Assembly (NCBI RefSeq): GCF_000025505.1
Contig: NC_013849.1
Coordinates: 240,001-272,000, forward strand
Source: Ferroglobus placidus DSM 10642
GTDB taxonomy: Archaea > Halobacteriota > Archaeoglobi > Archaeoglobales > Archaeoglobaceae
Length of the DNA: 32,000 nucleotides
Direction: 5' to 3'
The notes beneath the pieces were generated by a model, which was given only the letters and a program-made list of their open reading frames with translations, was not told the DNA's origin and searched no databases. A program made the translations under genes and the position numbers. The number at the start of each line of letters is the position of its first letter. The first letter of the stretch is position 1. Below are positions 354-20,964 of this stretch, piece by piece.

Positions 354-596
354 ATGCTTGCGAAGAGAGTACTATTAATCGGAGGAGGAATACTGCTGGT
401 TTCTATTCTTGCCATTCATTTAATTATCGGTGCCGTTGCTTTCGACACGGCAGATAAAATAGATGTCGCAATCGCAAAAGAAGAGGTTGAAAAAGCAAAT
501 ACCTCTCTGAATTATATCTTAGAGAACATAGACAGATTTTGCTCGGATTGGGCAGAATGGGACGACACCTACGAATTTATTTTAAACAATAAATGA
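354..596 (+). CDS. N-terminal fragment of a CHASE4-type sensor histidine kinase (TM anchor plus start of the sensor domain), cut off by TGA at 594-596
   Basis: It has the TM helix VLLIGGGILLVSILAIHLIIGAV, then FCSDWAEWDDTYEFI, the typical start of a CHASE4 sensor domain. The domain continues in the next ORF in a different frame. Confidence 0.6.
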   Translation: MLAKRVLLIGGGILLVSILAIHLIIGAVAFDTADKIDVAIAKEEVEKANTSLNYILENIDRFCSDWAEWDDTYEFILNNK

Positions 597-603
597 GGAA
601 TAT

Positions 604-1941
604 TTGAGATCAAACTGGGTTAACGAAACTTATCCAACTTTAGGAATAAACTACGCGATATATTTCGACAAGAGGGGAAACGTGGTCTTTGCGGGAGGCT
701 ATAACCTTCTGGAAGATGAACCAATGAAAGTTCCACCCAGCATTATCGCTGAATTCAGATATCTCCTTGCTAAAAGCGACGAAGACGTAAAGAAGGGCTT
801 TCTGAGAATAAACGATGAAATTCTTATATTTTCTTCGAGACCGATACTACACAGCAATGAAACCGGACCGTTTGTTGGAACGCTGATATTTGCGAGAGTT
901 CTGGATGAAGAGATAATCAATGCGGTTCGAGAGATTTCTGGAATCAATGTCTCTATCTCGTTGACTGCTAAAAATAATACTGAGACTACACAGAAATTCG
1001 TAATGGCTACTTATCCTTTAAAAGACTACAGGGGTGAGCAGATAGCGAGCATAGTAGTGTTGAAGGATAGAATTGCCAGAAATATCCTCTATCAGTTTTA
1101 CTTACCCTTCGCATTATCTGCTGGAGTGGTCGGAGGGATAGTCATTCTTAGCTATCTTGTTTTTGTTAAAAAATACGTTGTCAAGAGACTTGAAAATGTT
1201 ACGAGCACTCTGCAAGACATTACTTTGAAAGAGGATTTCGAGAGAAGAGTTTCCGATACTGGCGACGACGAAATAGCTGTGCTGAGTAGGAACATTAACG
1301 TTCTACTCGACAAAATCTCAAAAAATTTAAAGGAAATCAAGAGTTTGAACGACGATTTAAGGCTAATTAATAGAATAATGCGGCATGACATTTTGAATTC
1401 TCTGACAGCGATTCAGTTTTATGCCGACCTTCTGGAGGAAGAGTATAAGAAGGATTACGTAGGGAAAATTAAAGAGAGCACAGAAAAAATTGTTGATCTT
1501 ATAAAGAGAATTAGAGTTTTCGAACTTTCCTTAGAAAAAGGAATTAAAATGAAACCTGTGGATTTGGAAGAGATAATTCTCGAACTTTCCAAAGAGTACG
1601 GGGTTGAAGCTGTTGTTAAGGGAGATCTTAAGGTTTTAGCCGACGACTCTATCAAAAATGTCTTCGACAACCTCATATCGAACTCCGTAAAACATGGAAG
1701 AGCAAAAAGAATTTTTGTTGAAGGCAAGAGAGAAGGGGATTTTGCGATTATAACTTTCTACGACGATGGAATCGGAATTAGGGAAGATATAGCGGATAAA
1801 ATATTCGAAGAGGGTGTAACCACTGGAGGAAGTGGTTTAGGGCTCTACATAGCTAAAAGAATCCTTGAAAAATACGGTGGGGAGATAACATTAGCGGATC
1901 GAAAACAAGCTAAGTTCCTAATAAAATTAAAGGCATCGTAA
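604..1941 (+). CDS. Sensor histidine kinase (rest of CHASE4, TM, HAMP, HisKA, HATPase_c); the ORF-track start is TTG 604
   Basis: The second TM is LPFALSAGVVGGIVILSYLVFV. A HAMP-like linker follows, then the H-box RIMRHDILNSLTAI, the N-box NLISNSVKHG and the G-boxes DDGIGI and GGSGLGLYIAKRILEKYGG. The frame is already open from 586 (TINEEY...), which continues the upstream fragment. Confidence 0.85.
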   Translation: MRSNWVNETYPTLGINYAIYFDKRGNVVFAGGYNLLEDEPMKVPPSIIAEFRYLLAKSDEDVKKGFLRINDEILIFSSRPILHSNETGPFVGTLIFARVLDEEIINAVREISGINVSISLTAKNNTETTQKFVMATYPLKDYRGEQIASIVVLKDRIARNILYQFYLPFALSAGVVGGIVILSYLVFVKKYVVKRLENVTSTLQDITLKEDFERRVSDTGDDEIAVLSRNINVLLDKISKNLKEIKSLNDDLRLINRIMRHDILNSLTAIQFYADLLEEEYKKDYVGKIKESTEKIVDLIKRIRVFELSLEKGIKMKPVDLEEIILELSKEYGVEAVVKGDLKVLADDSIKNVFDNLISNSVKHGRAKRIFVEGKREGDFAIITFYDDGIGIREDIADKIFEEGVTTGGSGLGLYIAKRILEKYGGEITLADRKQAKFLIKLKAS

Positions 1942-1975
1942 ACATTTAAATTTCCAGCAGCATCTACTTGAAAAG

Positions 1976-2917
1976 ATGAGTTTCAGTGCCAAAGAGCTGC
2001 CCACAGTCCTGACCGCTCAGGAAATAATCGATAAAGCTTACAGAAGGGCATCAAGGGTAGGAGGAAGAACGAGTAAGGAGAGAGCTTTAAACAAGCTCGC
2101 TACTATATCCAACGTGTTGAGAGACTACTTTAAAAAAGTTGTTGAAGCTCATCCCTCTTACGATAATCTGCCCCCTTTTTACAGAGAGATGATAGACATT
2201 ATAGTCGGAGTCAGGAGGATAAAAAAGAGCTTGGCAGCTATAGCATGGGCTGACAGAATGACTCAAAAAGTAATAAGCAAAGGTGTCGCTCAGATAAAAG
2301 GCGGAAAGGATCCGAGGATCGTGCTGAAGGAGGTTTATGGGAGAGTTGCTTCCATAATCGAGCAGATAGACGACGAGCTTAAATTTTTAAACGAGGCAAG
2401 AGAAAAACTCAAGGAGATTCCTACGCTAAGCGAAGACTTTACGGTAGTTTTAGCGGGCTACCCTAACGTTGGAAAGAGCAGCATAATAGCCGAAATATCC
2501 TCAGTAAAGCCGGAGGTGGCGAGCTACCCTTTCACTACGAAGAAGATAAGCGTTGGGTTTGTCGAAGATAAGGACGTAAGAATCCAAGTTATAGACACTC
2601 CCGGAATCCTCGACAGACCAATCTCCAGAAGAAACGAGATAGAGAAAAGAGCGATAGTCGCTTTAAAACACCTCGCCGATCTGATCGTCTTCGTAATAGA
2701 CCCAACGGAAACCTGTGGCTATTCATTGGAAAATCAGCTCAACTTGTTGAGAGAGGTGAAAGAGACTTTCAAAAAGCCCTTAATTGAAATATACAGCAAA
2801 TCCGACCTTCACGATTTCAAAGACAGGATGAGAGTTTCGGTTGTGACGAAAGAGGGGATAGCTGAGCTCCTCAACCTGATAAAGGAAGAAGCGAGGAAAT
2901 CAAAAAGCCGAGGATAG
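1976..2917 (+). CDS. NOG1-family GTP-binding protein
   Basis: It has a NOG1-like N-terminal helical region, G1 LAGYPNVGKSS, G3 DTPGILDRP and a G4-like SKSD. The size and architecture match archaeal Nog1 homologs. Confidence 0.8.
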   Translation: MSFSAKELPTVLTAQEIIDKAYRRASRVGGRTSKERALNKLATISNVLRDYFKKVVEAHPSYDNLPPFYREMIDIIVGVRRIKKSLAAIAWADRMTQKVISKGVAQIKGGKDPRIVLKEVYGRVASIIEQIDDELKFLNEAREKLKEIPTLSEDFTVVLAGYPNVGKSSIIAEISSVKPEVASYPFTTKKISVGFVEDKDVRIQVIDTPGILDRPISRRNEIEKRAIVALKHLADLIVFVIDPTETCGYSLENQLNLLREVKETFKKPLIEIYSKSDLHDFKDRMRVSVVTKEGIAELLNLIKEEARKSKSRG

Positions 2918-3629
2918 CCGCGGAATTTAAATAAGGTAACCCGGGAGTCGGTTTATCCACTTTTTTGAGCAGAAGAATTAGAGCAGCCGAACTGAAAGCC
3001 AGAGTGAAAATCGCCTGAATTAAGGAGGAGTAGTAAGCGGAAGATATGAAGAGGACATTCGGAATCACCACATCCCCTACACCCATGTAAGAGTTTCTCT
3101 CCTTACCCGGGACGATGAATAGCAACGGCAACTCCATCTCGCTCAGAGATTCGGCAAGCTTAACCATGTGCCCTGTTTTGTAAACCGAAACGTAATCGTA
3201 AATCGCAAGGATAGCAAGAAGGATTATAGCCGGAAGCGGCTCTAGGCTTATTCCGAAGATAGCTATAACTCCAGCAGAAACAAAGAGCGCGACGAAGTTG
3301 ACGAAGATGGGATTTTTCTTTACTGCCAAAATAAGAGTTAACACAAGGGACGGAATTAAAGCGAAAAAGCCGATGAAAGGTGTGAGAACGAAGTATATCG
3401 TAAGGAAGATTAACAGATAGAAGATTAGCTTGACGAATAGCTTGGAAAGTTTAATGAGGAATATTATCAGTGCTGTAAAGGCGAGGATTAGAAGGAAGTA
3501 GTAAAAAGAGTTCGAAACGTCCGAAGGGTTTTCGAAAGCGAAAAAGCCTTCTTCGAAAAATTTTCCAGAAAAAAGGTAAGCTAAGAAAGCTGAAGTTGTG
3601 TAGAAGAAGAAAAATACCAGCGTTCTCAT
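2871..3629 (-). CDS. Presenilin/signal-peptide-peptidase-like intramembrane aspartyl protease (A22 family homolog)
   Basis: It is a polytopic membrane protein with the YD motif (AIYDYVSVY), the GxGD motif (MGVGDVVIP) and a PAL-like motif (PGLPYLN) in the canonical order. Its 3' end overlaps the convergent GTPase gene by 47 nt. Confidence 0.7.
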   Translation of the reverse strand: MRTLVFFFFYTTSAFLAYLFSGKFFEEGFFAFENPSDVSNSFYYFLLILAFTALIIFLIKLSKLFVKLIFYLLIFLTIYFVLTPFIGFFALIPSLVLTLILAVKKNPIFVNFVALFVSAGVIAIFGISLEPLPAIILLAILAIYDYVSVYKTGHMVKLAESLSEMELPLLFIVPGKERNSYMGVGDVVIPNVLFISSAYYSSLIQAIFTLAFSSAALILLLKKVDKPTPGLPYLNSAAILGFLISSLLPLSG

Positions 3630-3631
3630 TC

Positions 3632-5413
3632 TCAGTATCTCAGGTATATCTTCTCACCCTTTGCAAGAGCCAGCTTTATTCTCTTCCCGGCATCTCTGTC
3701 TTTTCTCACCCTTACAAGCCCTCTCTTTCCGACTTCCACGGTCGCAACGTAATCGTCTCCGGCAAAGATGTCGACGGTTTTTCCCTCAAGCCCCTCGGCA
3801 TGGATGACGTAATGCTTGCCCTTTTCCTCAACAAAAGCCTCAACAACGTTTTTTCTCTCCGCCTTCAAAGGCTCAACGTCTATGGAAATTCCGAGCTCCT
3901 CCTCAATAGCCTTTATCTTCCTACCTCTCCTCCCGAGGAGGTGGGGAATTTCATCTTCAGGAACTCTGACGACGACTTTCTTATCGCTCAAAGCCTCTAT
4001 TTCGTACACAGAAACGAGATCTTTTATCTTGTTTTCAACAGCGTTAACAACGATCTTGCTAACCTCGCTCTCTTTAACCGGCATCACAACAACCTGCTCT
4101 CCGTAGGTGTAAATCTCGTATTCAACTTTCTTCGTTTCGAAGTCTATAACCTCTATAACCGGTCTCGCCAGATCCGCTTCAGTCATTCCGTAGGGAACTT
4201 TCACCGTGAAATTGAGCTCGTACACCTTTCTTATCTTTCCGGCGTCGATGAAAATGACGGTATCAACTACCTGAGGAATAACTCCAAGTTCAACTCTCCC
4301 TATCATCCTCTGTATCGCATCTATCGCTCTCGTCGCGTGAGTTACTCCTATCATACCCACTCCAGCTAAACGCATGTCAGCGAAAACTAAAAAGTCACTC
4401 GTCTTTCTCACCTCGTCGTAGATGGTGTAGTCGGGTCTAACAAGCAAAAGGACGTCTGCCGTTAAAGTCATGTCCCCTTCGAGAGGAGCATATTGTGTTA
4501 TTTCATCTCTAACCATCAGATCCCTCGGACTTTCCATCGTCTTTACCATGTACCCGTTTTCCATTAAGTAGTTGGCTATGCTCGCTGCAAAAGTGGATTT
4601 TCCAGCTCCAGGAGGACCTGCTATCAGTATTCCCCTCTGCCTCTCTATTATCCTTTTTTTCAGCTCCTCACTTATACCAAAATCCTCGAGAGTAGCCTTT
4701 GCTATCGGTCTAACAGCGGTAATCTCCATTCTGTCGGCAAACGGTCTTTCGGCTATGGCTATCCTAACGTCTCTAAGCTGAACGACCGTGGCACCTCTCC
4801 TTTCAATTTCTATGTTGCTGTCTCTATCCTGAGAAGCAGCTTCGATGATCTCGTGAGCTATTTCTCTCAGCTCTTCAAGAGTCATCGGCTCGTCCCTTAT
4901 CTTCACGAGCTTCAGTTCTCCAATTCTCCCCCTCTTAGCCATCGGAACGCATCCTTCTCTCAAATGGACGCTCGCTGTGTCTGGAGTGAAGAACTGCATA
5001 ATCTTCGTTTCCTCCGGCTTTATCACTCTCTTCTCAAGGTAAATCGCCTTTATTCCCTTGGAAATTGCCACGTAATACTGCACTCTGTCGCATGTTATGA
5101 GAACAGCCTGTTCCTCTTCAGCCACTCTTCTTATCAGATTGTCTATCTCTCCCCCCCTCGCAAGTTTAACGTGCTCAAGGGTCGGTCTCTCTCCGAGGAA
5201 AAGAACGTCAAACCCTTTCTTTTCCGCAAGCTCTCTTATTCTTTTTATCTCCTCCAGCCCCTGCAAACCCGTTATCTTTCCAAAGTTCGCCTGAGCTTCC
5301 AGTTCAGCCACAACAGCTTCCGGAATTATTATCGTTCCCTTAAGCTCTCCTTTCTCTATCATCTGGGAAACTCTGCCATCTATAATTACGCTCGTGTCGA
5401 GAACGTACTTCAT
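3632..5413 (-). CDS. PIN-domain / PilT-like ATPase with a C-terminal KH domain
   Basis: The N-terminus is PIN-like (MKYVLDTSVIIDGRV). Walker A is IAGPPGAGKSTFA. The C-terminal KH-like GxxG segment is [22 protein letters not shown]. Confidence 0.75.
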   Translation of the reverse strand: MKYVLDTSVIIDGRVSQMIEKGELKGTIIIPEAVVAELEAQANFGKITGLQGLEEIKRIRELAEKKGFDVLFLGERPTLEHVKLARGGEIDNLIRRVAEEEQAVLITCDRVQYYVAISKGIKAIYLEKRVIKPEETKIMQFFTPDTASVHLREGCVPMAKRGRIGELKLVKIRDEPMTLEELREIAHEIIEAASQDRDSNIEIERRGATVVQLRDVRIAIAERPFADRMEITAVRPIAKATLEDFGISEELKKRIIERQRGILIAGPPGAGKSTFAASIANYLMENGYMVKTMESPRDLMVRDEITQYAPLEGDMTLTADVLLLVRPDYTIYDEVRKTSDFLVFADMRLAGVGMIGVTHATRAIDAIQRMIGRVELGVIPQVVDTVIFIDAGKIRKVYELNFTVKVPYGMTEADLARPVIEVIDFETKKVEYEIYTYGEQVVVMPVKESEVSKIVVNAVENKIKDLVSVYEIEALSDKKVVVRVPEDEIPHLLGRRGRKIKAIEEELGISIDVEPLKAERKNVVEAFVEEKGKHYVIHAEGLEGKTVDIFAGDDYVATVEVGKRGLVRVRKDRDAGKRIKLALAKGEKIYLRY

Positions 5414-9053: not shown

Positions 9054-9068
9054 AGCATTTCGCCTAAC
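9054..9068 (+). repeat. Copy A of the short motif AGCAtTtCGCCTAAC in the left flank of the cas island
   Basis: Read directly: agcatttcgcctaac. It shares the exact 9-mer TCGCCTAAC plus an AGCA prefix with 13093-13108. Confidence 0.4.
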
Positions 9069-9215
9069 GTTCTGGGGTATGTGAAGTTTGTGATAACAAA
9101 TTTGGTCGCAGCCTAACACGGTGGAGACACATATCCACCTGTTGTCCGAGTGCGATAGCACCGAAGCGAGCGATAGCGAGCGGAGAGTCGTGGACTAAGG
9201 GCACATATTATTTTC

Positions 9216-9977
9216 CTATATCCTGCGAATATCTATCTGAACATCTCCAAATCCTTTTGACTTGTATCCACCAAGTTTAGTTATGGCTTTAATCCGGTCT
9301 TCTATTAATTCTTTGAGTATTTTCTCTTTTGTCCATCTCCCAGATTCAAGCCATTTATCACCCTTACTTTCTGCCAAATCTCTTGGTTCTCCAAGTTTCC
9401 AGCCAATTATATCATCTTCTTCTAGAATGGTCATGACTCCTTTAAAGACACTACCTTCTGGAACAGCTTCATATTTTCCTAAGGCACCTTTTTCACCTTT
9501 TGCTGATGTACCTACAACTCTATCTTCTCTGATAAACTGTAAAAGTGCTACATCTCCCTTTTCCATTTTCAAAAACGGCACCTCTACAAATCCGACAAGT
9601 CCTCTTGCACCTAGCAGATAACAGACAGGACAGATGTAATCATCCTTATTGGGGTAAGAGCAACTATATTTGTACAATCCTCGTTCTATGAGTTTCTTTT
9701 CATCTGGAGAAACTGTTTTTACATCTGCCGGAATGCATGGTTTCATCCATTCCTCTGTCCATCTTTTATTTTCCTTGTCGAAGAATTGGTCTATAAGATA
9801 TCTTTCCAGTTCAGCTCTCAATGCACCTTTAAGCGATGTTCCCTGCACTACCACTTTATTGCCCAGTTTCACTATCGGGCTGTCCACATCCGTTGTTCCC
9901 GGTACTGGTCTCACTCCGCCTATTCTGAACGGAGCTTTTGTCACCAACTCTATTTTATATTTTATGTATTTTCTCAT
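9216..9977 (-). CDS. cas7: Type III Cas7-like RAMP protein (Csm3/Cmr4-like backbone subunit)
   Basis: KIELVTKAPFRIGGVRPVPGTTDVDSPIVKLGNKVVVQGTSLKGALRAELE follows the RAMP pattern (hIGG...D.P...IPGSSLKGALR). There is a Cys-rich insertion ending CPVCYLLGARG (compare CxxC.lFG) and a C-terminal G-rich loop GGYKSKGFG. The ATG at 9977 lies 6 nt after GGAGGTG. The ORF-track GTG at 9986 is an alternative start. Confidence 0.75.
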   Translation of the reverse strand: MRKYIKYKIELVTKAPFRIGGVRPVPGTTDVDSPIVKLGNKVVVQGTSLKGALRAELERYLIDQFFDKENKRWTEEWMKPCIPADVKTVSPDEKKLIERGLYKYSCSYPNKDDYICPVCYLLGARGLVGFVEVPFLKMEKGDVALLQFIREDRVVGTSAKGEKGALGKYEAVPEGSVFKGVMTILEEDDIIGWKLGEPRDLAESKGDKWLESGRWTKEKILKELIEDRIKAITKLGGYKSKGFGDVQIDIRRI

Positions 9978-9982
9978 TTCAT

Positions 9983-10252
9983 TCACCTCCTTGCAAATTT
10001 TATGGCATTTAACTTCTTGAAGATAAGTGTGCCAATCTCCACAGACAAATTTCTTTCCACAATCATATCTAGAACTTTCAAAAGAGCTTTTGATTCATTA
10101 TCATCCCTACCTAACAAAAATAATCTTGTGGCACCATAACCATATCTGCTGCAAATTTCCCCCACGGTATTAAGGAATTTGTTACTAAATCTCGTACTCC
10201 TGATTTGTGGGTCATTTCTTATCTTTTCAATAACTTCATCTACTATATCCAT
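9983..10252 (-). CDS. Small, apparently helix-rich protein, putative Cas11-like small subunit (called on position and size only)
   Basis: It encodes 89-92 aa and sits between the two RAMP genes. It overlaps both neighbours and has a GGAGG 8 nt upstream of ATG 10252. I recognise no sequence motif. Confidence 0.35.
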   Translation of the reverse strand: MDIVDEVIEKIRNDPQIRSTRFSNKFLNTVGEICSRYGYGATRLFLLGRDDNESKALLKVLDMIVERNLSVEIGTLIFKKLNAIKFARR

Positions 10253-10850
10253 AACCAACACCTCCTTTTATAAGAAACCATGGAGCGTAAACTTCACTCC
10301 CTTCAAACAACGACTTAACATAAACAGCTTTAGATAAAGATACTGGCTTAAGCAAATATCCATATACGGGTTTAACTGTCTTTACGAGGAATTTATCCAG
10401 ATGTTCTATGGGTATTCTTGTATTCAATTCTCCATACATTAACTGATTTTCATTAACTTCAATTATACCATTTTTTGTAAACTGTGTGTAACCCAAACCT
10501 TTAACCCGCAAAGCTCCCATTCTTAATTCAAATTTATCTGGAAGTCTCTCTGTTTCTGTGTTTTTGAGTATATACACGTGACCTCTGACATTAACTAAGA
10601 ATTCAAGAGAAATAGGAATTTTACTTACCCCGACTCCTCTATCTCTTGGGGAATAGGTTAAGTAATCCTTAGCATCGTAACTTTCTATGCAACCTACAGC
10701 GTGTATTTCATCCCCACCAAAATAAGTTTTTAATGCCCCCGTTATTGTTGTATAAGGAATTGTCATTACAGTTGGTCTAAAAGTTCCCTTCTTAATTCGT
10801 TCCCCAATACATAGCGTTTCGCTCTGAAATGTATAATGAAGGTACTCCAT
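10236..10850 (-). CDS. cas5: RAMP protein, Cas5/Csm4-like
   Basis: YLHYTFQSETLCIGE...TIPYTTITGALKTYFG is a degenerate RAMP N-terminal motif. The G-rich loop is LRVKGLGYTQF. The gene directly follows the cas10-like gene. ATG 10850 lies 1 nt after the cas10 stop and has a GGTGG RBS. The ORF-track start at 10874 lacks an RBS. Confidence 0.55.
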   Translation of the reverse strand: MEYLHYTFQSETLCIGERIKKGTFRPTVMTIPYTTITGALKTYFGGDEIHAVGCIESYDAKDYLTYSPRDRGVGVSKIPISLEFLVNVRGHVYILKNTETERLPDKFELRMGALRVKGLGYTQFTKNGIIEVNENQLMYGELNTRIPIEHLDKFLVKTVKPVYGYLLKPVSLSKAVYVKSLFEGSEVYAPWFLIKGGVGYGYSR

Positions 10851-10851
10851 T

Positions 10852-12831
10852 CTAACCACCCATAATTTTTGCATATGTTAACACATTTTGAAAGCCAAAC
10901 TTTTTAACAGCCTTCCTTAGTGGCTCATATTCCCTATAATCCCTGTCGTTTTGATCATATAATGTAATTTCTGCTAATTTTTCCGAAATTTCACTTATAG
11001 CGGCCAATTTATGTAGTAATGCTTTTTCTTTTATCTTAATTCTCAAAAATGATGTGAGTTGTTGCATGCTAAGTTTAATTTCTCCCTTGCCAATCACAGA
11101 AACGTGGACATCGTATTTTAAATCTGAAAGAATTCTCCAAGATTCCAAAAATGGATACTTTATGTTTGAACACACAATTCCTAGTTTTATTGGCGATGAT
11201 ACTTCTTTGAATTTGGGGAAGAACTTAGTAAAAGCCTCATCGAATATTTTCAATACTAAATGAATGTCCCTGAGGTTTTTTATTCTTACTGAGACAAACT
11301 CTTTCAGAATTTGTTGAAAACTATCTTCTCCAAATTTTTCCAAAAGTTTATTTCTAAATTCATCCAAAAATTCTCTGTAATCCAAATTAAACTCTGATAA
11401 TACAGAAAATCTTATCTCCGCTCGTTTTTCCGGTTCTTTTACCCCTAAATTTCTCAAATATTCAGTATAGAGTTCCTCCAAAACATTTATCAATTCATCA
11501 GTATCTAAATCTATCCTAATCCAAAGTATTCTGTCCGCTCCCTCTTTTTCCCATTCATCTAGTTTTGGAAACTTTGATCCTCTTTTTCTAATGTTAAAAC
11601 AAACTGTACATAGTTTTTCAACTATTCCACTTTCTTCATCTACCCATTTTTCAGTAGCTTGTTTCAACTGGCAAATCTCACAAATGGGTGGATCGATTTG
11701 TGAGGGAAAATCACCGTAAACTGAGCCTTTCTTGTACACACCTTCCTCTAATTCCTCATGGTATTGTTTCCAAAGTTCTGCTATTTTCTTTGCTTCGGGC
11801 TCCTTTTCAAATACACTTTTTTTGATACTTTCCTTCACTTCTTCTCTTTTGTTTAGAGGTACTTTTGGTATCGTTTTTCTAAATTTCTCTTCGAGTTTTT
11901 TGTATAGTATTTTTTGCATTTTGTTTATTAATCTCATTGTTCTATCAGGATCTGGATATGGTTGATCTAAATTTTGAATTCTTTCAACATATTCGAACCA
12001 AAAGCCATATTGCGATACGATCTCTTTTATTTTATCGAGCTTTTCATTTAATGGAAGAATTAGTAGCAACTCGGTAAAGCCTACAAAAATTACATTATTT
12101 GGATATTCTTTCAGAATTTTTCTTTTTACTTCTTCCAAAGCATCAAAAACATTAAGATCTCTTATTCTAACGGGACGTTGTGGAAAATTTATTTTAATTT
12201 TTACTATTTTTATTTTTGTTTCTTCTTTTATCCGATGGATATAAGCTCTAATTTTATCTTTAGTTGTTATCTCAAACCACTTATCATCAACTTTTTCGAG
12301 ATAGTCGTATAGAAAGTTGTAAAGTCGTGCTGTTAGATTACTGTGCGTCCATAATGAAGTAATATTAGCTCCCGGGGTAGCATCTTCAGCTCTAACCTTA
12401 AGGTATTCTCCAAAAGTTTCGAAAAACTCCTTTACAGAAGGATTTCTGTTTACAAATTCTACAATCTTAGCAATCCATTTAGGATTTGTTGCGTCTTTAT
12501 TTATCACTTCAGATAATTTATGAAAATTGCTACGTGGAGGATTCCAAAGCTTATAAGTATTGTATCTTGGAGATTTTCCTCTCACTTCTATATGCCTAGA
12601 AGTAGCAGATGCTACGCTATCGGCTATTGACAAAACAAGAGTTTCGAAGCTTTTGGGGTATTCTTTATCTCTTTCAGTACAATGATGTTGTAGAATCCCC
12701 TCCCATACAGGATTCATTTTAATAGGTGGGACATCTTTAAGTCCATCAGGATAATTTTCAAAATTATGTTTGATTATAGAACTATCTATGAGTTTTCCGA
12801 TATCATGCATCTCTGGTTTTATATCTTTCAT
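10852..12831 (-). CDS. cas10: Cas10/Csm1-like large subunit (HD - Palm1 - zinc finger - degenerate Palm2 - C-terminal helical domain)
   Basis: The N-terminus has EMHDIGKLI (compare Csm1 LLHDIGK), then LQHH, SIADSVASATSR and ITSLWTHSNLTARL. The Palm1-like strand is NVIFVGFTELLLILP. The zinc finger is CEICQ-x19-CTVC. Palm2 begins ILWIRIDLDTD, followed by RFSVLSEFNLDYREFL and PIKLGIVCSNIKYP, but there is no GGDD. ATG 12831 has a GGTGG RBS 6 nt upstream. The ORF stays open to 12924. Confidence 0.75.
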   Translation of the reverse strand: MKDIKPEMHDIGKLIDSSIIKHNFENYPDGLKDVPPIKMNPVWEGILQHHCTERDKEYPKSFETLVLSIADSVASATSRHIEVRGKSPRYNTYKLWNPPRSNFHKLSEVINKDATNPKWIAKIVEFVNRNPSVKEFFETFGEYLKVRAEDATPGANITSLWTHSNLTARLYNFLYDYLEKVDDKWFEITTKDKIRAYIHRIKEETKIKIVKIKINFPQRPVRIRDLNVFDALEEVKRKILKEYPNNVIFVGFTELLLILPLNEKLDKIKEIVSQYGFWFEYVERIQNLDQPYPDPDRTMRLINKMQKILYKKLEEKFRKTIPKVPLNKREEVKESIKKSVFEKEPEAKKIAELWKQYHEELEEGVYKKGSVYGDFPSQIDPPICEICQLKQATEKWVDEESGIVEKLCTVCFNIRKRGSKFPKLDEWEKEGADRILWIRIDLDTDELINVLEELYTEYLRNLGVKEPEKRAEIRFSVLSEFNLDYREFLDEFRNKLLEKFGEDSFQQILKEFVSVRIKNLRDIHLVLKIFDEAFTKFFPKFKEVSSPIKLGIVCSNIKYPFLESWRILSDLKYDVHVSVIGKGEIKLSMQQLTSFLRIKIKEKALLHKLAAISEISEKLAEITLYDQNDRDYREYEPLRKAVKKFGFQNVLTYAKIMGG

Positions 12832-12958
12832 TTCATACCACCTATAGTATCTATTTTTGCGCCCGAAGTCTACAATCACACCTACACCTGGTAGGTATAC
12901 GAAGTGCGAGGTGAAACCGAGCATTTGGGCAGAGCGAAGTGCAGCCGTATGTCCGCTA

Positions 12959-12973
12959 TTAGGCGATGTTGCT
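12959..12973 (-). repeat. Copy B (inverted) of the flank motif: AGCAACATCGCCTAA on the minus strand
   Basis: Read directly (plus strand ttaggcgatgttgct). With copy C it forms an imperfect inverted repeat (13 of 16) separated by 119 nt. Confidence 0.35.
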
Positions 12974-13092
12974 CTTTAGCATTAATCTTTCCATCTTTCT
13001 TTCATAGTTCGCCCAATTCTTTGTGCCTCATACTCGCTTCTTGAATTTGAGATAAAGCATGTTCTTCACCTCTCACCTATAGGTTTTGAGTT

Positions 13093-13108
13093 AGCAATGT
13101 CGCCTAAC
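13093..13108 (+). repeat. Copy C of the flank motif: AGCAATGTCGCCTAAC
   Basis: Read directly. It is in direct orientation relative to copy A, on the other side of the cas operon. Confidence 0.4.
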
Positions 13109-13584
13109 TTGTTTTCCACGAAATTTTTATTCGCATAATCTTCCGAATGGGGACTAAAGCGAAATTTTATAAAGCTAAATTTCATACTGTTTTGTACAAG
13201 TTTGAATATTAAAAAGCTTACGCCACAAGAGCAATACGAGTTAATAGACAAGCTTATAGAGGAAATAGTAACTGAGAAAATATTTTTATCAAACAGACAG
13301 AGCATACATTTCAATTGTTAAAAGATTTTAAAATCCGGTAAAGCACCGAGAGAGTTTTTACATTCTTACTCAAACAAAAGCAAGTCAACGATGAGAAGCG
13401 TTTATTTTGCTTTAGATTTTTCTATGAAAACGCACTTAATTAAAAATTCGATGAGAAATTATCCTTAGCTAAGAGGGATTTAAAACTGTCTGTGATGTTA
13501 AGTAGAGAGATGATAAATAAAATGATCGAAGTATCCACAAAAATAAAACACAAACTTGTTTTGATGTTTCCTTATTATGATGTC

Positions 13585-13865
13585 CTACTGTTGAATAAAG
13601 TTAGAAATTTGAGGTGCGAGCATTTCCTTAACAATTTCCAACAACACAACCGCACTGTTGCATTTCGTACCTCTGGCTGAATAAAGCAGAGTTGTCCTCT
13701 TCTGTTCTTTAATTATTTCAATTAGCTTCTCCAAACTCTCTTTATTTCTCTCCAACTCCTCTCTGTATCTTTTTCTGACTCCTCCCATTTGGCAAGATCG
13801 TTGGGAAACCACTTTCTTCTCCTTAAACATTTCCAGAACTGGACAACATTTTTATAGCGAATCCG
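13585..13865 (-). pseudogene. Decayed DUF488 (YeaO-like) gene: 5'-truncated and frameshifted
   Basis: The ORF 13585-13830 ends ...VRKRYREELERNKESLEKLIEIIKEQKRTTLLYSARGTKCNSAVVLLEIV (compare E. coli YeaO ...FREQYLAELA...LTLLYSAKNTTQNHALVLADWL, from memory). Upstream, the homologous LRRRKWFPNDLAKWEE is in the +1 frame (open only to 13865). The N-terminal ~35 aa (RiLVDRlWPRG part) are absent because the L15e promoter and gene begin there. Confidence 0.5.
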
Positions 13866-20709: not shown

Positions 20710-20964
20710 GGGGGGAGAGGTGGGGGGCGGCTTCCCGGGAGGAGGAAAGTCCCCCCACCGTTAACGGCGGGACGCCGCAAGGCGTCACGCCGAGAGGCGT
20801 GGCTCCGGCACAGAAACGACACCCGCTTGGGGATACGCGAGGAGGCCGAAAGGCTGAGATCACCCAAGCGGGATGAAACGCGCCGTCCCCGCCGGTGCAA
20901 GGCGTAAGCCGCTGAGACGAATGCCGCCTTAAACAGAAGGGGGCTTACCACCACCTCTCCCCCC
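20710..20964 (+). ncRNA. rnpB: RNase P RNA
   Basis: It is a G+C-rich block in an A+T-rich spacer. It has the universal GGAGGAAAGTCC (CR-I), CACAGAAA, and ACAGAAGGGGGCTTAC (CR-V). A perfect 14-bp terminal P1 helix pairs ggggggagaggtgg (20710-20723) with ccacctctcccccc (20951-20964). The 96-aa minus-strand ORF here is spurious. Confidence 0.9.

Follow-up and report, generated by a model that had tools for sequence, protein, structure and literature searches.

A type III-F CRISPR effector module of Ferroglobus placidus lying between two attC-like sites

The effector module of F. placidus was first described in 2014 by Vestergaard, Garrett and Shah as 'variant subtype VIII-2', with proteins of 659 aa and 89 aa whose sizes match the present locus (PMC3973734), and it is now classed as subtype III-F. 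III-H has been described as distantly related to III-F. Elsewhere in its genome, F. placidus is known from published work to carry six CRISPR loci, a I-A system that includes cas6, and one of type VII. Ghaly et al. (2022) found archaeal integrons only in MAGs, and the main text of their paper mentions neither Archaeoglobi nor CRISPR cassettes (PMC9668308). The operon itself is, thus, already known; the apparently new and unreported part is that it lies between two integron-style recombination sites. No experimentally characterised III-F complex was found in the literature searched, and the activities of the module given below are therefore all predictions from motifs.

ORF calling in the window, i.e. 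the whole 32-kb stretch of DNA that was analysed, gave four tightly coupled minus-strand ORFs spanning 9216-12924. With RBS-supported starts, the genes are as follows.

10852..12831, minus strand: cas10, 659 aa, III-F large subunit, RBS GGTGG
10236..10850, minus strand: cas5, 204 aa, Csm4-like, RBS GGTGG, start 1 nt past the cas10 stop
9983..10252, minus strand: cas11, 89 aa, III-F small subunit, RBS GGAGG
9216..9977, minus strand: cas7, 253 aa, single Csm3-like backbone subunit, RBS GGAGG

Cas10 and cas5 are separated by a 1-nt gap, cas5 and cas11 overlap by 17 nt, and a 5-nt gap lies between cas11 and cas7. The first-pass annotation had described four packed ORFs with overlaps or 1-nt gaps and GGAGG or GGTGG RBSs. 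Its upper limit of 12924 (a 690-aa ORF) was over-extended into a non-coding attC-like site; a start at M32 (12831) is backed by the GGTGG RBS and by conservation among relatives.

All four proteins matched III-F profiles of PADLOC. Cas10 scored 1040 bits (Cas10a/Cas10f), Cas5 362 bits with Cas5 and 315 bits with Cas5_IIIf, Cas11 112 bits with Cas11f (E 2e-33), and Cas7 370 bits with Cas7_IIIf, the last also matching Pfam RAMPs at 29 bits, above the cutoff. An AF2 model of Cas10 (pLDDT 91.5, pTM 0.90) matched Csm1 chains over its full length in Foldseek (E 3e-13, probability 1.0). The earlier reading of the 659-690 aa protein as Cas10-like, the 204 and 253 aa proteins as RAMPs, the ~90-aa protein as Cas11-sized and the whole as subtype III-F, therefore, stands, as does its claim of a single Cas7, since only one cas7 occurs in the window. 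About 30 loci share the order cas10-cas5-cas11-cas7. Judged from their sequences, the four genes form an intact type III-F effector module without an array.

When Cas10 was aligned with 33 homologues, the HD residues H9, D10, H49 and D71 were invariant (33/33), as was the Zn finger C384/C387/C408/C411. GGDD was absent from this alignment, and L-K-E-F sits at the Palm hairpin turn. The HD nuclease domain is thus intact and the Palm/cyclase motif lost, in agreement with the claim that the protein is cyclase-dead. Cas7 D35 (TDVDSPIVK), which is conserved across the close clade, aligns to the Asp of GGIDNPVIK in Csm3 of T. onnurineus (6muu_C). The retention of this catalytic Asp makes RNA cleavage likely, beside the 'DNA?' target of classification tables.

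Repeat searches found no CRISPR-like repeats in the 32-kb window, RNase P RNA was the only Rfam match in it, and the Cas/CARF models of PADLOC had no match in its other 28 sizeable ORFs. These searches bear out the statement that an array, cas6, cas1/2 and CARF genes are missing from the 32 kb. Pfam likewise confirmed the isolation of the module among housekeeping genes: ADP-forming acetyl-CoA synthetase domains flank it to one side, and L15e, two RNase PH, KH, proteasome and SBDS domains to the other. The GC content of the module (0.32-0.35, against ~0.45 in the flanks) suggests that it was acquired horizontally. Comparison of neighbourhoods placed the modules of the close clade in unrelated genomic contexts. 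The gene families near III-F relatives include Cas6, Cas1, Cas4 and Cas3, and CARF was not among the top 25 neighbour families.

The position of the module between two integron-style sites would explain why it stands alone. The features outside the four genes are as follows.

9058..9151, minus strand: 3' attC-like site with R'' GGACAAC, L'' GGATATGTG, a centre of ~55 nt, L' CACATA-CC and R' GTTAGGC
9152..9215, minus strand: conserved non-coding segment from the cas7 stop to the attC-like core, with the tandem motif GCGATAGCGA
12832..12885, minus strand: conserved 5' cassette leader, AGGTGTGATTGTAGACTTCGGGCGCAAAAATAGATA...GGTGG, beginning at the R'-core position
12876..12968, minus strand: decayed upstream attC-like site with stems kept, AAC changed to AAT and the GTT core mutated
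13100..13231, minus strand: second conserved non-coding block, ending in AAGTTAGGCGA (R'-like)
13408..13620, plus strand: tyrosine-recombinase pseudogene fragment with an internal stop and a degraded AGLR motif, divergent to the cassette

The first-pass annotation had listed no recombination-type sites beside the module. The two bracketing sites are co-oriented, ca. 95 nt long, of the pattern xxxxAAC…stem…GTTRRRY, and less than 4 kb apart, within the CALIN criterion. The 3' site, whose crossover-equivalent G is at 9068, scored 81 bits with CM R1, and its structure is backed by alignment A6 and pair counts. A homologous site lies directly past cas7 in the relatives' loci L002, L042, L043/L044, L168/L169 and L170; the segment 9152..9215, which contains a TRF repeat (9152-9182), is kept downstream of cas7 in L002, L042 and L043. 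The upstream site, which was outside the training set of CM R1, scored 31.2 bits (E 2e-7 to 4e-6), and equivalent sites occur directly upstream of cas10 in L002 (41 bits), L168 (35), L001 (19) and L043 (74). The bracketing sites delimit the sequence that is conserved among close relatives: 5' of cas10, conservation begins in five loci exactly at the GTT-AGG junction, with divergence 5' of there.

In nine copies of the site, 75.5% of cells were paired in the attC-like structure as compared to 18-41% with slid partners, and covariation was 0.31 as compared to at most 0.095, with none of 500 shuffles reaching the observed value. In 137 distinct copies, pairing was 86% (31-45% with slid partners) and covariation 0.43 (at most 0.10), in an alignment that was fitted to the model and thus leans towards the modelled structure; AAC/GTT was retained in about 95% of these copies. 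The whole element of ~165 nt folds no better than shuffled sequence (z = -1.3), limiting structural support to the core of ~95 nt. Conserved extrahelical bases were not evident in the L stem.

Seven independent loci have a site immediately 3' of cas7, and five have one immediately 5' of cas10. Co-oriented cassette arrays with the same site occur in more than 120 metagenomic contigs; it is absent from the III-F clades L045 and L167 (Cas10 62-65% identical). L043 has a tyrosine integrase upstream of six co-oriented sites, which separate the gene sets III-F, ParE, Metallophos+AAA_15, MNT-HepT and MTase-MjaV. This integrase has about 15 residues in place of the IntI-specific additional domain (VchIntIA 182-238) and aligns unbroken to XerA. 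The pseudogene fragment of the window matched residues 152-222 of the L043 integrase in tblastn (32% over 71 aa, E 4e-9). Whether the fragment belongs with the cassette is uncertain, and it is divergent, whereas the integrases are co-oriented in six other loci.

The ~95-nt elements could instead be a MITE/REP-type intergenic repeat, a terminator or an RNA-stability element, given that they form stems in 3' UTR positions, that the neighbouring recombinase lacks the IntI-specific domain, and that neither an empty site nor a circular form was found, so that recombination was not seen directly. We consider this unlikely, since in all 37 contigs with at least two sites the copies share one orientation (strand-mixing in 0/37), the same as that of the ORFs (111/125 co-oriented; median spacing 1.2 kb, coding fraction 0.91), and the compact gene sets that they separate are functionally unrelated. 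Besides, the AAC...GTT triplets are invariant at the attC R''/R' positions, conservation breaks exactly at the GTT core, and integrase genes or remnants lie upstream of the cassette arrays in six loci. The block at 13100..13231 shares 83% identity with L002 (239-375), and divergence sets in right past GTTAGGCGA, beyond which L002 has an extra 150-aa ORF and an attC-like site. L002 and F. placidus, thus, differ by whole-cassette content, which also argues for recombination sites. The block, which did not resemble the block found 3' of the integrase in other loci, could represent either one end of a further site or an attI/promoter region. Taken as recombination sites, these elements make the module look like a fossilised integron-type gene cassette, and we infer that its mobility was recombinase-mediated.

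Since the core of the upstream site is mutated, the nearby integrase is a pseudogene, a dedicated array is missing and the GC content is still foreign, the module could also be a decaying, non-functional relic dropped by a mobile element, unexpressed and unused. This seems quite improbable when none of the four ORFs is disrupted, each has an RBS, the genes are translationally coupled, all family-invariant catalytic and structural residues are retained, and the predicted Cas10 fold is confident.

Guides are likely to be ordinary crRNAs supplied in trans, because six CRISPR loci and the I-A cas6 exist elsewhere in the genome and III-F relatives often lie beside arrays. An adjacent array with canonical repeats was present in six of the 11 relatives whose Cas10 is 30-36% identical (L005, L006, L013, L023, L034 and L038); these arrays are co-oriented, with 37-nt repeats mostly ending in ATTGAAAC. 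The statement that III-F is typically array-less is, thus, only partly true; in the close clade of the F. placidus module, an adjacent array never occurs. Array-less derived CRISPR systems with new roles are known, such as Tn7-associated systems and type IV, and the lack of adjacent arrays in the close clade, together with the conserved structured element always found downstream of cas7, could point to a complex guided by a non-CRISPR RNA, or to a regulatory rather than defence role. One candidate guide would be a transcript of that element. Such a guide or role, which had been raised as an option before, is very improbable: the same element stands behind unrelated genes in more than 100 contigs and is therefore not III-F-specific, III-F loci at a greater distance are accompanied by canonical arrays oriented like the operon, and neither a repeat-like remnant nor an Rfam family was found in the flanks.

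In many cases the parts of a type III locus are scattered over the genome, and F. placidus has arrays and cas6 somewhere, yet the module can hardly be a fragment of an ordinary III-A/III-B locus with its array, cas6 and accessory genes just outside the window, because its neighbours are housekeeping genes for 9 kb to one side and 19 kb to the other, the top profiles of Cas5, Cas11 and Cas7 are III-F-specific rather than those of III-A/B, the four genes of close relatives also stand alone, without an array inside 10 kb, and the flanking sites mark clear limits of the module.

Taken as a whole, the locus is probably best explained as an intact III-F module that uses crRNAs in trans and is carried on an attC-bounded cassette. 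Cas5, Cas10 and several copies each of Cas7 and Cas11 would assemble on a mature crRNA with the usual 8-nt repeat-derived 5' tag, made by Cas6 from CRISPR arrays elsewhere on the chromosome. The complex would bind complementary transcripts and cut the RNA by Cas7 (D35), and target binding would activate the HD domain of Cas10 to degrade DNA at the transcription site. A cyclic-oligoadenylate signal would not be produced, in keeping with the lack of CARF effectors. The module would be a portable effector-only unit and for this reason lack its own array, cas6 and adaptation genes. The cassette would extend over 3.8 kb (12885 to 9068 of the window), ending in the co-oriented attC-like recombination sites; it was presumably acquired horizontally and is now immobilised in F. 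placidus because the upstream site has decayed.

The module matches the III-F prototype (Thermotoga lettingae Tlet_0097-0100) in its four genes and their order, in having only one cas7 and in its small Cas11f, and shares with III-F a Cas10 with HD and without the cyclase motif, no ancillary effectors and usually no array. The effector genes do not differ; the kept catalytic Asp of Cas7 and the bracketing attC-like sites are added here. As compared to III-A Csm (structures from S. thermophilus, S. epidermidis, T. onnurineus and L. lactis), the Cas10 model matches Csm1 at full length and the HD motif aligns, at an overall identity of ~13%, and Cas7 aligns to Csm3, including the catalytic Asp and a Cys-rich insertion. 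The module has one Cas7 paralogue where III-A has Csm3 plus Csm5, and its lack of the GGDD cyclase site implies neither cOA signalling nor Csm6. In III-G/H, too, the cyclase is inactivated, the HD is apparently active, an adaptation module is missing and crRNA is proposed to be recruited in trans. The catalytic Asp of Cas7 is missing in III-G/H and kept in the F. placidus clade; III-G uses Csx26, and in III-H Cas11 replaces the Cas10 C-terminus, whereas the F. placidus Cas11 is a separate 89-aa protein.

With integrons and CALINs, including archaeal ones (PMC9668308), the sites share co-oriented compact cassettes, each followed by a structured R''(..AAC), L'', L', R'(GTT..) site, a boundary at the GTT core, diverse cassette functions rich in TA and RM genes, an upstream tyrosine recombinase with a SAM_4 N-domain and, right past this gene, a conserved block. 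The recombinase here differs in lacking the IntI-specific additional domain, and the L stem in lacking evident conserved extrahelical bases. The four-gene CRISPR cassette is, at 3.8 kb, far larger than the other cassettes here. In recent work on Vibrio, bacterial sedentary chromosomal integrons reportedly store anti-phage defence systems in their cassette arrays. L043 resembles these as a defence store, holding III-F, two toxin-antitoxin pairs, RM and a nuclease/ATPase pair, and differs in its archaeal host, its other attC sequence family and recombinase type, and its CRISPR effector cargo.

Four minus-strand ORFs were mapped at 9216–12924 of the window, and gene starts were chosen by inspecting the sequence upstream of every candidate start for a ribosome-binding site (RBS). 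The genes are as follows:

Start at 12831 (M32 of the ORF), minus strand: cas10, 659 aa, GGTGG upstream
Start at 10850 (M9), minus strand: cas5, 204 aa, GGTGG upstream
Start at 10252 (M4), minus strand: cas11, 89 aa, GGAGG upstream
Start at 9977 (M4), minus strand: cas7, 253 aa, GGAGG upstream

The map and the RBSs agree with the first-pass annotation, which had described four packed minus-strand ORFs preceded by GGAGG or GGTGG. It had given the junctions as overlaps or 1-nt gaps; along the operon, a 1-nt gap and a 17-nt overlap were found, but the third junction is a 5-nt gap. Its upper limit of 12924, the start of a 690-aa cas10 ORF, was abandoned in favour of M32 at 12831, as it reaches into a conserved non-coding site. 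Both this start and the public start of a 675-aa protein (12879) lie inside an attC-like site upstream of cas10 (12876–12968, minus strand). Since M32 is the conserved, RBS-linked start, both longer versions are probably wrong, and the database protein would be over-extended at its N-terminus. The GC content of the module block was 0.32–0.35, as against ca. 0.45 on either flank.

The PADLOC subtype models assigned the four proteins unambiguously to III-F (Cas10a/Cas10f, 1040 bits; Cas5, 362 bits, and Cas5_IIIf, 315 bits; Cas11f, 112 bits; Cas7_IIIf, 370 bits). The order cas10-cas5-cas11-cas7 with a single cas7 in the window was the same in ca. 30 related loci. The original reading of the operon as cas10-cas5-cas11-cas7 was thus borne out, all four proteins being placed in III-F families by profile searches, and profiles, gene order and Cas10 features together agree with its interpretation as III-F. 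With Pfam and NCBIfam, Cas7 alone of the four proteins was matched, and weakly, which accounts for the annotation 'hypothetical protein'.

Across 33 aligned Cas10 homologues, E7, H9, D10, K13, H49 and D71 of the HD site and the Zn-finger cysteines C384/C387/C408/C411 were invariant. A GGDD-type motif was absent from the window Cas10 and from 30 of the 33 aligned sequences, the three incidental matches lying at non-homologous positions; the turn of the Palm β-hairpin reads L-K-E-F. The absence of GGDD and the invariant HD residues fit the cyclase-dead Cas10 proposed at first. An AlphaFold2 model built from the 33-homologue alignment (pLDDT 91.5, pTM 0.90) was compared with the PDB by Foldseek, and the Cas10 reading held here too, as the best 50 matches were without exception Csm1 or Cmr2 chains, the first of them at E 2.7e-13 over the full length. 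The Cas10 sequence profile reached Csm1 through the HD region only. As modelled, the large subunit adopts the Cas10 fold, which comprises an HD domain, a pair of Palm-like domains, a Zn finger and a helical C-terminal domain. D35 of Cas7 (in TDVDSPIVK) was aligned with the Asp within GGIDNPVIK of T. onnurineus Csm3 (ToCsm3), the counterpart of the catalytic D33 of S. thermophilus Csm3. The close clade has D at this position, most loci of the clade with 30–36% Cas10 identity have D or E, and the most distant clade has lost the residue. Cas7 is accordingly a backbone subunit predicted to cleave target RNA by means of this Asp. The HD motif, the lost cyclase motif and the lack of ancillary genes for cOA signalling in the window are as expected of III-F and agree with PMC11229360. 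The enzymatic activities of the module (HD DNase, Cas7 RNase, no cOA signalling) are predictions.

The closest database protein to the Cas10 was 100% identical, from Ferroglobus placidus and annotated as 'hypothetical protein'; the operon had already been published as the III-F module of F. placidus. Its lineage is now subtype III-F, with Tlet_0097-0100 as the prototype and a predicted target given as 'DNA?'. According to Makarova et al. 2025, arrays are absent from most III-F loci, with exceptions, and F. placidus also has a type VII system. The first-pass annotation had held that III-F has little or no experimental characterisation; no experimental study of III-F was found in the literature searched. 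The III-F Cas10 gave zero tblastn matches on annotated plasmids or phages. The operon alone adds little, being a published module whose predicted HD DNase, Cas7 RNase and lack of cOA fit known type III biology.

No CRISPR-like array was detected in the 32 kb by tandem-repeat and direct-repeat searches or by a custom array detector, and PADLOC gave no Cas or CARF/Csm6/Csx1 match among the other 28 sizeable ORFs of the window. These searches confirm the absence of an array, Cas6, adaptation genes and CARF effectors from the 32 kb that had been noticed earlier. By Pfam, the 28 flanking ORFs are housekeeping genes, including those for ADP-forming acetyl-CoA synthetase domains, L15e, two RNase PH exosome subunits, KH proteins, a proteasome subunit, SBDS and tRNA synthetases. 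Over the whole window, Rfam identified archaeal RNase P RNA only (RF00373, 183.6 bits; 20715–20959, plus strand), inside the ribosomal/exosome gene cluster, and an Rfam family in the module flanks was discounted, one sub-threshold snoRNA match being all that was obtained. A degenerate array in the ca. 1 kb 5' of cas10 or 3' of cas7 was also rejected, the repeats of 20 arrays adjoining relatives giving no more than chance matches of 10 nt (E ~0.5). Two ATTGAAAT motifs, at 13308 and 13715, had no flanking sequence in common.

A scan of species-representative genomes yielded 41 related loci, some with cas5-cas11 fusions and 17 with CRISPR arrays. In six of the 11 relatives with 30–36% Cas10 identity, an array lay directly 5' of cas10 or 3' of cas7 in the orientation of the operon. 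The subtype had been called typically array-less, which is true of the window but not of these six relatives. Their arrays have 37-nt repeats with 3' ends that are mostly ATTGAAAC (or ATTGAAAC/G), from which the usual 8-nt 5' tag derives. Cas1 (8 proteins), Cas3 (7), Cas4 (6) and several Cas6 families were encoded within 5 kb of the relatives' operons, and no CARF family was among the 25 families listed there. The adjoining arrays and the Cas6, Cas1, Cas3 and Cas4 neighbours suggest that the III-F family is an ordinary crRNA-guided effector. Six CRISPR loci are given in the F. placidus genome paper, and a recent survey gives a I-A system (cas1-7) with arrays in the F. placidus strain. With arrays and cas6 known from these papers, the most economical explanation is that Cas6-processed crRNA is supplied to the module in trans.

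Among the related loci compared (numbered with the prefix L), cas5 and cas11 are fused (ca. 340 aa) in L006, L007, L010, L013 and L034, from Methanoperedens, Bathyarchaeota and an unclassified archaeon; arrays lie directly 5' of cas10 in L006, L013 (63 repeats) and L034 (57 repeats). A distant clade with Cas10 22–34% identical (L003, L016, L017, L022, L024, L025, L027, L028, L030 and L035) has a ca. 180-aa gene between cas5 and cas7 and a Cas7 without the catalytic Asp, and 30-nt-repeat arrays occur near L016, L022, L024, L030 and L035. This clade may be another subtype or variant than III-F proper.

A non-coding stretch just 3' of the cas7 stop was kept in place in the close clade (L002, L042 and L043/L044; Cas10 identity 69–81%) and was found five further times in the contig L043. 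Its 3' ca. 95 nt have the layout of an integron attC site, for which the criterion was an imperfect inverted repeat R''(RYYYAAC)-L''...L'-R'(GTTRRRY) of 57–141 nt with structure kept above sequence. The core of ca. 93–99 nt begins with an outer box xxxxAAC (GCCTAAC in L042 and L043, GGACAAC in F. placidus) and closes with GTTAGGC. Spacers of 4 nt on the xxxxAAC side and 7 nt on the GTTAGGC side separate these boxes from two complementary arms, GGATATGTG (9 nt) and CACATATCC, and the centre of ca. 55 nt between the arms includes an inner hairpin. In nine copies, 75.5% of the pair cells were standard pairs, as against 18–41% with slid partners, and covariation was 0.31 as against at most 0.095, the observed value being reached in 0 of 500 shuffles. 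Conservation in these copies was confined to the AAC/GTT triplets within the outer boxes, as is likewise the case in bacterial attC sites. In 137 distinct copies, whose alignment was fitted to the model, pairing was 86% (31–45% with slid partners), covariation was 0.43 (as against at most 0.10), and the triplets were present in ca. 95%. The L stem was 91% paired, with double changes in eight of nine pairs and controls far lower. In integrons, strand choice depends on extrahelical bases of the folded attC; in the model, the L stem has no conserved bulge, and the unpaired spacer between the R and L boxes is asymmetric (4 vs 7 nt). The whole element of ca. 165 nt was rejected as one hairpin (DNA fold z = -1.3, consensus energy -5 kcal/mol), and the supported structure is confined to the 95-nt core. 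Between the cas7 stop and this core, a tandem motif GCGATAGCGA (period 10, 3.3 copies) occupies 9152–9182 of the minus strand; the segment bearing it is common to III-F cassettes and absent from most other cassettes.

A covariance model of the site (R1) was built from the nine copies. Copies outside its training set were found directly 5' of cas10 in the window (12968–12876; 31 bits, E ~1e-6), L002 (864–953; 41 bits), L001 (467–551; 19 bits) and L168 (3959–4052; 35 bits), and the model found copies directly 3' of cas7 in L168 (54 bits) and L170 (69 bits). With filters off, the window contained two sites only below E 0.01, co-oriented and 3.7 kb apart. Conservation among five loci began 5' of cas10 exactly at GTT/AGGYGTAATCGTGGACTTCGGGCGC and was lost beyond, and downstream it stopped a few bases past GTTAGGC; the unit bounded by the sites runs from 12885 to 9068 of the window (3.8 kb). 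Among the close-clade loci compared, the III-F unit occurs in unrelated contexts. These observations make it likely, as far as comparison of the sequences goes, that the flanking sites are recombination-type cassette boundaries. Neither recombination products nor empty sites turned up in the comparative sequence data, and the R1-type family was absent from the III-F clades at 62–65% Cas10 identity (L045 and L167). Long direct or inverted repeats around the island were discarded, since a gapless repeat finder gave nothing convincing; the bounding sites were not evident from such a search and emerged only by comparison with relatives. A tRNA as the integration target was dismissed, the window having no tRNA gene.

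The upstream site of F. placidus retains its stems, while AAC has become AAT and the GTT core is mutated; this copy is probably immobilised. Further upstream, a block at 13231–13100 shares 83% identity with L002 as far as its end at AAGTTAGGCGA (GTTAGGC); from there the loci diverge, L002 having one ORF and one site more than F. placidus. This block, matched in L002 only, showed no similarity to the block that lies next to the integrase in other arrays; it may be the end of another site or an attI/promoter region. Within the ca. 130 nt between the GTTAGGC of the block and the decayed site (12969–13099, minus strand), an RBS-like GGTGAGAGGTGA precedes an ORF of nine codons, which may be the stump of a deleted cassette. 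The III-F module of L167 (GCA_002010155.1, MTMS01000042; Cas10 65% identical) has no R1-type site and lies in a mobile-element-like region with genes for an integrase, an Orc1/Cdc6-like ATPase, SNase, a Holliday-junction resolvase, SIR2, PIN, dNK and PCNA.

In L043, six co-oriented sites lie within 12 kb, all downstream of a tyrosine integrase gene, and separate the gene sets III-F, antitoxin-ParE, Metallophos and AAA_15, MNT-HepT, and MTase-MjaV. An exact-pattern scan of metagenome contigs returned at least 120 stretches, and the pattern was absent from the viral contigs searched. Among the matches listed, the covariance model found 140 sites in 80 loci; 37 contigs had at least two sites, and none had sites on both strands. 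The 68 inter-site segments among these matches had a median spacing of 1.2 kb (range 441–4791) and a coding fraction of 0.91, 111 of 125 ORFs were co-oriented with the sites, and 37 segments held a single ORF. Cassette functions were mixed, with 175 Pfam families over 113 ORFs of the matches listed, including methyltransferases, RM subunits, TPR proteins and MBL-fold proteins. The PADLOC model 'mad2' matched one window ORF (E 7e-19) and eight of the 113 cassette ORFs in alignment A8 (best E 7e-53), but the matches may be due to generic domains and not to true MADS-system components.

Six loci, the III-F locus L168 among them, have integrase-like segments 5' of the first site and co-oriented with it. 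In four of these, only the last ca. 50 codons of the L043-type integrase remain:

L049, 6159–6335: 76–86% identity (range for the four)
L053, 4167–4319: as above
L085, 3565–3669: as above
L109, 2814–2963: as above

A block just 3' of the integrase was common to five loci, the next gene was variable, and no conserved accessory gene was found between the integrase and the first site. The window has an integrase pseudogene fragment at 13408–13620 (71 aa) matching residues 152–222 at 32% identity, with an internal stop and the AGLR motif degraded to DVLL. The fragment runs divergent to the cassette and has only weak similarity, which makes any association between the two uncertain. Abutting it, an 81-aa ORF (13585–13830, minus strand) covers the C-terminal half of DUF488 only (profile positions 56–117 of 131) and is apparently a truncated gene.

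The cassette context of III-F appears unreported, and at the level of sequence anatomy it is well supported. Whether the F. placidus-clade III-F is a portable plug-in effector, moving as single 3.8-kb cassettes on a XerA-like integron-variant platform whose sites are widespread in metagenomes, we regard as evenly balanced. If so, III-F would be array-less by design, exploiting crRNAs already made by a new host, and F. placidus, with its fossil copy, would be the first archaeon in culture to carry such a cassette. The flanking sites offer a testable reason for an effector-only III-F scattered across unrelated archaea and bacteria, and they would tie CRISPR effectors to integron-type gene capture, a link absent from the archaeal integron paper (PMC9668308) and the other literature searched. 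The covariance model already recovers ca. 150 sites, in co-oriented arrays, from public metagenomes among the matches listed. Cultivation of F. placidus puts both RIP-seq of the complex and recombination assays with the sites within reach, which would give the first experimental data on III-F.

Integrons in Archaea were defined by a spacing below 4 kb between two or more attCs, with co-oriented cassettes of mostly promoterless ORFs and many TA and RM genes (Ghaly et al. 2022; PMC9668308); they were described in MAGs only, and the main text of that paper names neither Archaeoglobi nor CRISPR. The present system resembles such integrons or CALINs in the two co-oriented sites within 4 kb in the window, in the arrays of L043 and in the co-oriented ORFs. 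The L043 integrase has Phage_int_SAM_4 and Phage_integrase domains, and its best PDB match was the integron integrase VchIntIA (180 bits), with a split alignment. With NCBIfam, it scored 254 for XerA_Arch (cutoff 220), a family named 'site-specific tyrosine recombinase/integron integrase', and 243 for the integron integrase TIGR02249, below the cutoff of 265. Unlike IntI, it lacks the IntI-specific additional domain of an integron integrase, with ca. 15 residues where IntI4 has residues 182–238, and it aligns without a break to archaeal XerA. The platform is therefore called integron-like, not a classical integron.
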